From Escherichia phage Turkey3: a DNA stretch of 64,000 nt. Location of the stretch: sequence record PQ471515.1. The stretch is one strand, 5' to 3'. The notes below the pieces were generated by a model, which was given only the letters and a program-made list of their open reading frames with translations, ran no database searches and was not told the DNA's origin. Position numbers and translations under genes: made by a program. Below, piece by piece: positions 20,471-21,436 of the stretch (positions within the stretch are counted from its first letter, which is position 1; each line of letters begins with the position of its first letter).

Positions 20471-21436
20471 GTGAAAAAGCTTGATTTAAATGCAATTTCT
20501 GAAGAAGTACTGGATGAGTGTTTTGCTAGTGAAGAAGTCAACGTATTAGAGGCTCTTGATTCCGTAGAAGAAGAAGAACATGACGGTCACAAGTTTGAGA
20601 AACCAAAAACAGGTATCAGCTTAACTCGCCCTAAAGGGATAACGAATGAAATGCTCATCCAAGCAGTGCGTGATGGCATAGACGTTAAAAAGAACATTGA
20701 CCTTTTGGTTCGCTACAACTATCCAATGGTAGTAAGTGTTGCACGTAAGTGTACATGTTTTATCCCATTTGAAGATAAGATTTCTTATGGTGTTGAAGGT
20801 TTAATGCGAGCAATTCATACGTTCGACACTACCAAAAATGTTAAGTTCATTACATATGCAACAACAACTGTGTACATGACAATCTATAACGAAAGTGCAG
20901 ATGCTAATTATCTAGTGCATTTCCCACGTTATATGAGTGTTAATAACATTTATGTGAAACGTTGTGTTGAAGAGTATCAAAGGAAACATGGTAAATACCC
21001 AACTCCTGAGATGGTGTCAAAAGAGACTGGTATTGAGATTCAACACGTTAAGAATTGTCTAACTTACAATAACACTTATGTAGCATTGAATATGAAAATG
21101 AGTAATGATTCAGAAAGTACATTATCTGACATTGTTACTTCAGTTGAACCTGATTACAACTTAGGTGTAGAAACTGTCAGTACCCCACTGGTACAAAGTA
21201 TTGCAGAAATGATGAGTAACCTATCTACCAAAGACCGTGAATTGATTGAACGTGTACATGGTATTGGTTCTTATTCTGAACCAGAAACGCTACGAGAAAT
21301 CATTGAGAGTGGTTTTGAAGATGAGAAGGGTAAGGTCATGACTGCTCGTTCTTCATTGCACCGTAAGTACTCTGAAGCAATGGAACGACTGCGTAAGATG
21401 GTTAAGACAAAAGGTTATGAGTTCGAAGATTTTTAA
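20471..21436 (+). CDS. sigma-70 family RNA polymerase sigma factor (divergent)
   Basis: 321 aa; GTG start after AGGAGAAG; DKISYGVEGLMRAIHTFDTTKNVKFITYATTTVYMTI aligns to region 2 of RpoD, with region 3 and region 4 equivalents following. Confidence 0.8.
   Translation: MKKLDLNAISEEVLDECFASEEVNVLEALDSVEEEEHDGHKFEKPKTGISLTRPKGITNEMLIQAVRDGIDVKKNIDLLVRYNYPMVVSVARKCTCFIPFEDKISYGVEGLMRAIHTFDTTKNVKFITYATTTVYMTIYNESADANYLVHFPRYMSVNNIYVKRCVEEYQRKHGKYPTPEMVSKETGIEIQHVKNCLTYNNTYVALNMKMSNDSESTLSDIVTSVEPDYNLGVETVSTPLVQSIAEMMSNLSTKDRELIERVHGIGSYSEPETLREIIESGFEDEKGKVMTARSSLHRKYSEAMERLRKMVKTKGYEFEDF

Follow-up and report, generated by a model that had tools for sequence, protein, structure and literature searches.

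Which promoters does the sigma factor of a jumbo coliphage read, and what part might it play in the temporal programme of a phage that relies on the host polymerase? The question was raised by a gene within a 64,000-nt stretch of Escherichia phage Turkey3 (PQ471515.1; the whole stretch is referred to as the window), for which the original prediction was a sigma-70-family factor with altered promoter specificity, owing to missing region 2.3 tryptophans, and a link to the AT box upstream of a late gene array. The window phage is an Asteriusvirus-type (RaK2-like) jumbo coliphage and the region shares 99.7% identity with Escherichia phage vB_Ec-M-J (OQ718158.1, Asteriusvirus, 378.6 kb; hereafter the reference genome), whose orthologue, EcMJ_505, is annotated 'RNA polymerase sigma factor' and shares 99.4% amino acid identity with the Turkey3 sigma. 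The gene is already annotated, and CBB_513 and RaK2 ORF244 are among the other orthologues. Sequence identity was 60% to the proteins of 121Q/PBECO4-type phages and 37–43% to those of RaK2, CBB, SE_PL and related phages. In published work these orthologues are only annotated or called a hallmark gene (PMC7824862, PMC11895373, PMC5259590), with their region 2.3 and 4.2 traits and target promoters absent from those papers, and our literature search found no experimental work on this sigma.

Matches to Pfam, PHROG, NCBIfam and PDB sequences bore out a phage-encoded sigma-70-family factor. Pfam Sigma70_r2 (PF04542) matched aa 79–141 at 37.2 bits (cut-off 24) and Sigma70_r3 (PF04539) matched aa 162–224 at 44.8 bits (cut-off 25.3). 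Among PHROG profiles only phrog_351, 'RNA polymerase sigma factor', was matched (E = 4.6e−48); there was no match to phrog_234, the T4 gp55-type profile, in the same collection. Many NCBIfam sigma models were also matched, the best being RpoD_Cterm (E = 2.4e−27), with every score well under the curated cut-off of its model, and the top PDB sequence match was Mycobacterium tuberculosis SigB (E = 1.7e−17). The AlphaFold model, for which the family alignment was the input, had low global confidence (pTM 0.35) with three confident domains, sigma-2 (aa 50–145), sigma-3 (aa 153–200) and sigma-4 (aa 240–313), at pLDDT 80–87, and Foldseek comparison of this model returned sigmaS and SigA chains (best 5ipl_F, E = 4.8e−11).

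The best sequence and fold matches were group 2 sigmas (RpoS, mycobacterial SigB), which are similar in length and likewise have a partial region 1.2 followed by regions 2, 3 and 4. However, the Turkey3 sigma scored far below the group 1/2 family cut-offs (82–96 versus 354–464 bits: RpoD_Cterm 96 versus 354, RpoS 81.7 versus 378.7, SigB 84.4 versus 464), lacks the WW pair and the Q437, T440, R441, H455 and E458 residues, and carries an insertion in region 4.2. Group 3 sigmas (FliA/sigma-28, SigF/G) likewise lack W433/W434, yet initiate normally; the Turkey3 sigma gave weaker profile scores against them (62–68 bits against cut-offs of 190–234: TIGR02479 61.6 versus 189.6, TIGR02980 67.7 versus 234.35) and no specific relationship. 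At its N-terminus, aa 1–58 (window 20471–20644) are acidic and predicted to be disordered. This end of the protein also has a clade-conserved motif, MKxLDLNxIxxEVLDECF, in which L6, D15 and F18 are invariant; it may bind a partner or act as an autoinhibitory segment resembling region 1.1.

All three of the alignments to RpoD on which the original prediction was built were reproduced with HMMER and MAFFT, the HMMER alignment pairing 'kfityatttvymtiy' with 'kfstyatwwirqait'. YATTTVYM does stand where housekeeping sigmas have YATWWIRQ, placing T132/T133 opposite W433/W434 (E. coli numbering). The accompanying claim, that the aromatic residues of region 2.3 are replaced, held for Y425 (now V) and W433/W434 (now T/T) but not for F419, F427 and Y430, which are kept as F117, F126 and Y129; the N383 equivalent is also kept. 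The tryptophan pair serves mainly as a melting wedge rather than to set specificity, and for sigmas outside group 1/2 it is normal to lack it. E. coli FliA (sequence identical to PDB 6pmi_F) reads YAVQRIRG at this position and so also lacks WW, as does B. subtilis SigF in our alignment, and in all aligned phage homologues the two columns hold small residues (TT, TS, SS, AA or VS). Missing tryptophans as such are ordinary and typical of non-housekeeping sigmas; judged from these alignments, they are alone unsurprising for an alternative sigma and not peculiar to Turkey3. The predicted change in promoter specificity remains likely, whereas its attribution to the tryptophan pair needs correction. 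Better evidence for altered specificity comes from the changed Q437/T440/R441 equivalents and the changed region 4.2 recognition helix. Among the specificity residues of region 2.4, the changes are R436 to Y, Q437 to M, T440 to Y and R441 to N, and the extended −10 contacts have changed from H455 to Y and E458 to V.

A profile check on sigma-70 regions 2 and 4, suggested with the original prediction, succeeded for region 2 and gave no Pfam Sigma70_r4 match for region 4. Yet the RpoS model alignment extends to aa 319, and in the AlphaFold model aa 240–313 are helical and sigma-4-like (pLDDT 81–87), with the insertion in the turn of the helix-turn-helix (HTH). A profile search against 1.84 billion representatives delineated a small, well-separated phage clade of ~19–23 clusters above roughly 125–150 bits, with the general sigma-70 plateau underneath. 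All clade members above 150 bits lack WW and have a 6–8 residue insertion in the region 4.2 HTH, and the recognition helix of the clade is of the type S(R/K)x(S/T)LxR; the bacterial sigmas just under the score gap have both WW and TRERIRQIE. The Turkey3 sigma has the traits of this PHROG 351/RaK2-like clade, namely no WW, the region 4.2 insertion and the recognition helix. Residues T137, N140, P152, R153, S156, V157, G281, D284, G287 and H297 are invariant within it. The same domain order, missing tryptophans and region 4.2 insertion are found in the RaK2-like 'group 2' jumbo phage sigmas (EcMJ_505, 121Q/PBECO4, Sharanji 'RpoD', CBB_513 and RaK2 ORF244), with no substantive difference from Turkey3. 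Across these sequences, loss of WW defines the clade and goes together with remodelling of region 4.2.

Table 1 Features of the sigma locus and the late array in the window.
Feature	Position	Strand	Basis or remark
Sigma-70-type promoter-like site, TTGACG-17-TATAAT	18875..18903	+	11/12 match; 5' of the block ending with the sigma gene
Sigma-70-type promoter-like site, TTGACT-17-TACAAT	19196..19224	+	10/12 match; directly 5' of the four-gene block
Three tightly packed co-oriented ORFs (86, 139, 165 aa)	19264..20448	+	No annotated function
Shine-Dalgarno (SD) sequence AGGAG	20460..20464	+	6 nt 5' of the GTG start of the sigma gene
Turkey3 sigma-70-family gene, 321 aa, GTG start	20471..21436	+	ORF listing
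Region 2, aa 79–141	20705..20893	+	Pfam, HMMER and MAFFT alignments
YATTTVYM motif, aa 129–136	20855–20878	+	
T132/T133, in place of W433/W434	20864–20869	+	
Region 3, aa 162–224	20954..21142	+	Pfam
Divergent region 4, aa 240–313	21188..21409	+	MAFFT alignment, AlphaFold
Clade-specific insertion, G281–T291	21311–21343	+	Between the HTH helices
Region 4.2 recognition helix, A292–K309 (ARSSLHRKYSEAMERLRK)	within 21188..21409	+	
Intrinsic terminator hairpin, 11 bp and T-run	21441..21466	+	5 nt past the sigma stop codon
M-class promoter, TGGGAC-N14-TGATACAAT	21473..21501	+	Directed into the structured RNA; proposed sigma target class
Structured noncoding RNA, ~450 nt	21548..22002	+	Behind the M-class promoter; proposed regulon member
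Late array: RCC1-like paralogues preceded by eight units, each with a terminator hairpin, a TAAATA box and an SD	50248..63386	−	TAAATA boxes at 50248, 54438, 55857, 56667, 57871, 59960, 62125, 63381

Four ORFs lie tightly packed in the same orientation at 19264–21436; the sigma gene is the 3'-most of them and is probably co-transcribed with the other three. A strong SD precedes it and a terminator hairpin comes after it (Table 1). Around the gene, the total number of sigma-70-like matches returned by a promoter scanner equalled the shuffled expectation, so only the top intergenic sites carry weight; the best in the neighbourhood are the two listed in Table 1. Because it lies behind these sigma-70-type promoters, the gene is probably expressed early by host sigma-70, which agrees with the prediction for CBB, where CBB_513 falls within the predicted early region (PMC5259590).

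Two further observations concern the surroundings of the gene. Seven tRNA genes (Rfam/Infernal, 50–72 bits) lie 5' of the sigma block on the + strand (window 4716–9179), with small ORFs and a gene for an HNH endonuclease between them. A composite signal, AAAGGGTTGACTTCGGTCAGCCCTTTTTGCTATAAT, consists of an intrinsic-terminator hairpin with a TTGACT −35 hexamer inside its stem; the T-run passes into an extended −10, so that terminator and promoter are fused in a ~40 nt unit. It is used at least seven times in the window (29925, 33519, 36562, 40859, 41582, 42966 and 45726, all +), and the hairpin copy after the sigma gene (21441–21466) is followed by an M-type promoter (see below) instead.

Promoters were analysed in the reference genome, using crude gene calls and k-mer and dyad analyses of ~300 upstream regions; genome-wide counts thus mostly refer to this 99%-identical phage, and sites in the window were located separately since indels break an ungapped comparison. 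The only −10-type elements enriched in the ~300 upstream regions were TATAAT and TAAATA. Three promoter classes were found, termed E, L and M, and the k-mer and dyad analyses of these regions yielded no fourth motif. For CBB, too, the published prediction is of three promoter types, along with a gp55-like late sigma (PMC5259590). Class E (66 sites) comprises an A-rich upstream element, TTGCAA or TTGACA, a spacer of 16–17 nt, TATAAT and GTTTTACATC. It is concentrated in the terminal repeat and the 285–330 kb region, covered by the window, and has the sub-types AGTACTTGCA, TTGACA and hairpin-embedded TTGACT. Class L (79 sites) consists of TAAATA alone, 25–40 nt 5' of the start codons of structural genes and all RCC1-like array genes; all information lies within the hexamer, and a −35-like box is absent. 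Class M combines TGrGAC, 14 nt and TGnTA(T/C)AAT; in the reference genome the strict pattern has 17 occurrences on the + strand and none on the − strand, against an expectation of 0.07. M promoters precede primase, SSB, the RecB-like exonuclease, topoisomerase II, RNase H, the NrdD region and others, as well as the gp55-like gene and all four copies of a structured RNA in that genome. Reading the GTGCTTTACA-type sites as T4 MotA boxes was rejected on spacing.

As an observation apart from these classes, the palindrome AGTACT occupies fixed positions in all of them (many OQ718158.1 intergenic regions; for example, window 5410–5437 and 23835–23862). It is found as AAAAAGTACTTGCA at the −35 box, as CAGTACTGTATAAT just 5' of the −10, as TTTCAGTACTATAAATA ahead of late boxes, and within terminator stems; it may act as a binding site or reflect some signature related to restriction.

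We then asked which class would fall to the phage sigma. The original prediction had pointed to the late array, and a non-host sigma with altered −10 determinants might well be matched with TAAATA, the sole clearly non-sigma-70 −10-type element in the genome. That the Turkey3 sigma reads the TAAATA promoters, including those of the RCC1-like array, nevertheless appears improbable. All 79 sites are single-box and without −35-like information, whereas the sigma keeps a conserved region 4; the single-box architecture is that of T4 late promoters, which are used by a gp55-type factor without region 4. The reference genome encodes such a factor separately. EcMJ_325, 'sigma factor for late transcription', matches phrog_12791 (E = 9e−153) and the T4 gp55-type phrog_234 (E = 1.1e−16) and adjoins SbcD/SbcC homologues, just as T4 gene 55 adjoins genes 47 and 46. 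Furthermore, the TAAATA box is unchanged at orthologous CBB and RaK2 sites, though the sigma-70-like proteins of these phages are only 37–43% identical, and the sigma gene itself bears early-type expression signals. The proposed link to the late-array box thus found no support, and the array promoters are probably those of the gp55-like sigma. A perfect M promoter, TGGGAC-N14-TGCTATAAT, lies directly 5' of the gp55-like gene (OQ718158.1, about 191.59 kb), therefore suggesting a cascade.

The products and genes of the late step have features of their own. The gp55-like late sigma is 279 aa long, with the gp55-type profile match limited to aa 128–262 and an extra N-terminal domain of ~125 aa. 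On the − strand of the window (47400–64000) there are ~14 paralogous genes of ~380 aa whose annotation is 'regulator of chromosome condensation' (RCC1-like); every one of them has a terminator hairpin (CCAGTACT..AGTACTGG), a TAAATA box and an SD. The array is unusually regular, having one promoter and one terminator for each gene, and all genes start MLPF.

To relate class M to the phage sigma, we compared the syntenic replication regions of 121Q, CBB, RaK2 and 7t3 with the sigma sequences of those phages. The M-box and the region 4.2 helix covaried, a correlation over about three independent states. Helices of the form SR[ST]S[LI]HR occurred with TGGGAC (window phage, TARSSLHRKY with TGrGAC, 17 sites; 121Q-type, KSRSSIHRKY with TGrGAC, 5 sites; SE_PL/7t3, SSRTSLHRCY with TGGGAC/GGGAyr, 7 sites), SKATLSRR with TGAAAC (CBB, TSKATLSRRY with TGrAAy, 9 sites and none of the Asteriusvirus type; Yen904, TSKATLSRRY with TGAAAC, 1 site), and VRGTLHYKF with TGAACr (RaK2, TVRGTLHYKF, 3–4 sites). 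The SE_PL sigma is nearer overall to that of CBB (45%) than to that of Turkey3 (37%) and has CBB's IRQ in region 2.4, yet both its helix and its box are those of the Turkey3 lineage. In 121Q the M boxes were kept and the spacers had diverged. The hosts of these phages are all enterobacteria, among which region 4.2 of sigma-70 is essentially identical. Lineage-specific boxes alongside a near-identical host sigma-70 therefore imply a phage-encoded reader, and the pairing suggests region 4.2 of the Turkey3-type sigma as the obvious candidate, although any other lineage-specific DNA-binding factor would covary with the box likewise. Two simpler rules were discarded. A one-residue correspondence between Arg and G in the box was dropped, as RaK2 keeps Arg and His but has TGAACr, and the −13 base (after TG) showed no correlation with the R436/Q437 equivalents, SE_PL having a CBB-like IRQ but an Asteriusvirus-like TGA/TGC.

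On balance, we lean towards a reading in which an early-made phage sigma sends the host core polymerase to M promoters, ahead of a gp55-type late step. The sigma would be made early from host-sigma-70-type promoters and would bind host core RNA polymerase, because the phage has no polymerase gene, redirecting it to the two-box middle class TGrGAC–14 nt–TGnTATAAT. The divergent region 4.2 helix, with its clade insertion, would read TGrGAC instead of TTGACA, and the kept F419, F427, Y430 and N383 equivalents could still accept the flipped −11 A despite the lost W433/W434 wedge. M promoters would in turn drive the genes for replication and nucleotide metabolism, the gp55-like late sigma gene and the four structured RNA paralogues. 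The late sigma would then read the single-box TAAATA promoters that precede the structural genes and the RCC1-like array genes.

The assignment of class M to the phage sigma has to be weighed against the −10 half of these promoters. TGnTATAAT is a perfect extended −10, the sigma-70 consensus, and can be used by host sigma-70 without a −35 box, whereas the phage sigma is without the sigma-70 residues that read TG (H455/E458) and the −12 position (Q437/T440), which counts against this assignment. Host sigma-70 might accordingly read M promoters via the extended −10 while a separate phage activator binds TGrGAC, in a MotA/AsiA-like appropriation; T4 middle promoters are also composed of an upstream box and a sigma-70 −10 element. 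The phage sigma would then serve other promoters, such as a subset of the hairpin-embedded TTGACT-TGCTATAAT ones, and the E class does have distinguishable sub-types. We regard this arrangement as a serious but less likely rival, as the M-box follows the region 4.2 helix of the phage sigma from lineage to lineage and the k-mer and dyad analyses gave no fourth promoter motif. A tblastn search of the reference genome with T4 AsiA, MotA, gp33 and gp55 returned nothing significant, including no AsiA, MotA or gp33 homologue, a weak argument given that the same search missed the profile-detected gp55-like gene. The lost W433/W434, several lost −10 contacts and the lost TG contacts, together with the acidic and predicted disordered N-terminus, would also suit a protein that does not initiate at all and instead occupies core or displaces host sigma-70, shutting off host transcription. 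Such a competitor seems very improbable. Many functional sigmas lack the tryptophan pair, and the strong conservation of regions 2.4, 3.0 and 4.2 within the clade suggests selection for DNA reading; moreover, a block of core would also hit the phage, given its dependence on host polymerase.

If the phage sigma does direct class M, the arrangement may extend to RaK2-like jumbo phages in general as a three-sigma cascade, running from host sigma-70 to a full-length phage sigma and on to a gp55-type factor. A dedicated WW-less clade would open extended −10 promoters with a lineage-specific −35-like box, read by an HTH with a beta-hairpin insertion, in replacement of the T4 AsiA/MotA appropriation. 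We put this forward tentatively, at a little short of an even chance. A comparable logic is known from the SPO1 gp28 and gp33/34 cascade, in which phage sigma-70-family factors made from host-sigma promoters redirect host core to the next temporal class (PMC13401047). The sigmas of this Bacillus phage are small and highly diverged, with no detectable specific sequence relationship to the Turkey3 sigma, and the second step of the cascade in Turkey3-type phage would, unlike that of SPO1, use a T4 gp55-type factor. Compared with T4 (AsiA/MotA appropriation; gp55/gp33/gp45 at TATAAATA), the Turkey3-type phage is distantly T4-like, sharing the late TAAATA box, a gp55 homologue beside gp47/46 homologues, and middle promoters with an upstream box and an extended −10. 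It differs from T4 in that no AsiA/MotA homologue was detected by tblastn (a weak negative) and that a complete second sigma may carry out the middle step. From three promoter classes one can read the temporal programme of a roughly 380-kb coliphage, and for the role of the 'hallmark' sigma there is a concrete hypothesis. If true, the natural helix/box series (TGGGAC, TGAAAC, TGAACr) would be of use for dissecting or engineering sigma-4 recognition.

Finally, the M promoter downstream of the sigma gene is directed into an element (Table 1) that is, by its covariation, a genuine structured RNA. RNAalifold analysis of seven sequences gave 14 helices and 78 pairs, 37 of which had compensatory changes. 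In this alignment 97% of cells were paired, compared with 37–47% in slid registers, and the covariation score was 0.51 compared with 0.05–0.10 in controls; the observed values were reached by 0/500 shuffles. Whether run at the gathering threshold or at E ≤ 1, Rfam scans of the element returned terminator-like chance matches only. The reference genome has four diverged copies, each behind an M promoter, with the paralogues at about 59.5, 112.1 and 196.4 kb (OQ718158.1), and the family occurs in 60 RaK2-like jumbo-phage records across the superclade, with 2–5 copies each. This adjacent, unannotated 450-nt RNA family, conserved across the superclade, may be the more novel object here. The element is 95–99% identical in 121Q-type phages whose neighbouring sigma is 60% identical, and several lineages have one RNA copy a few kb 3' of the sigma gene.
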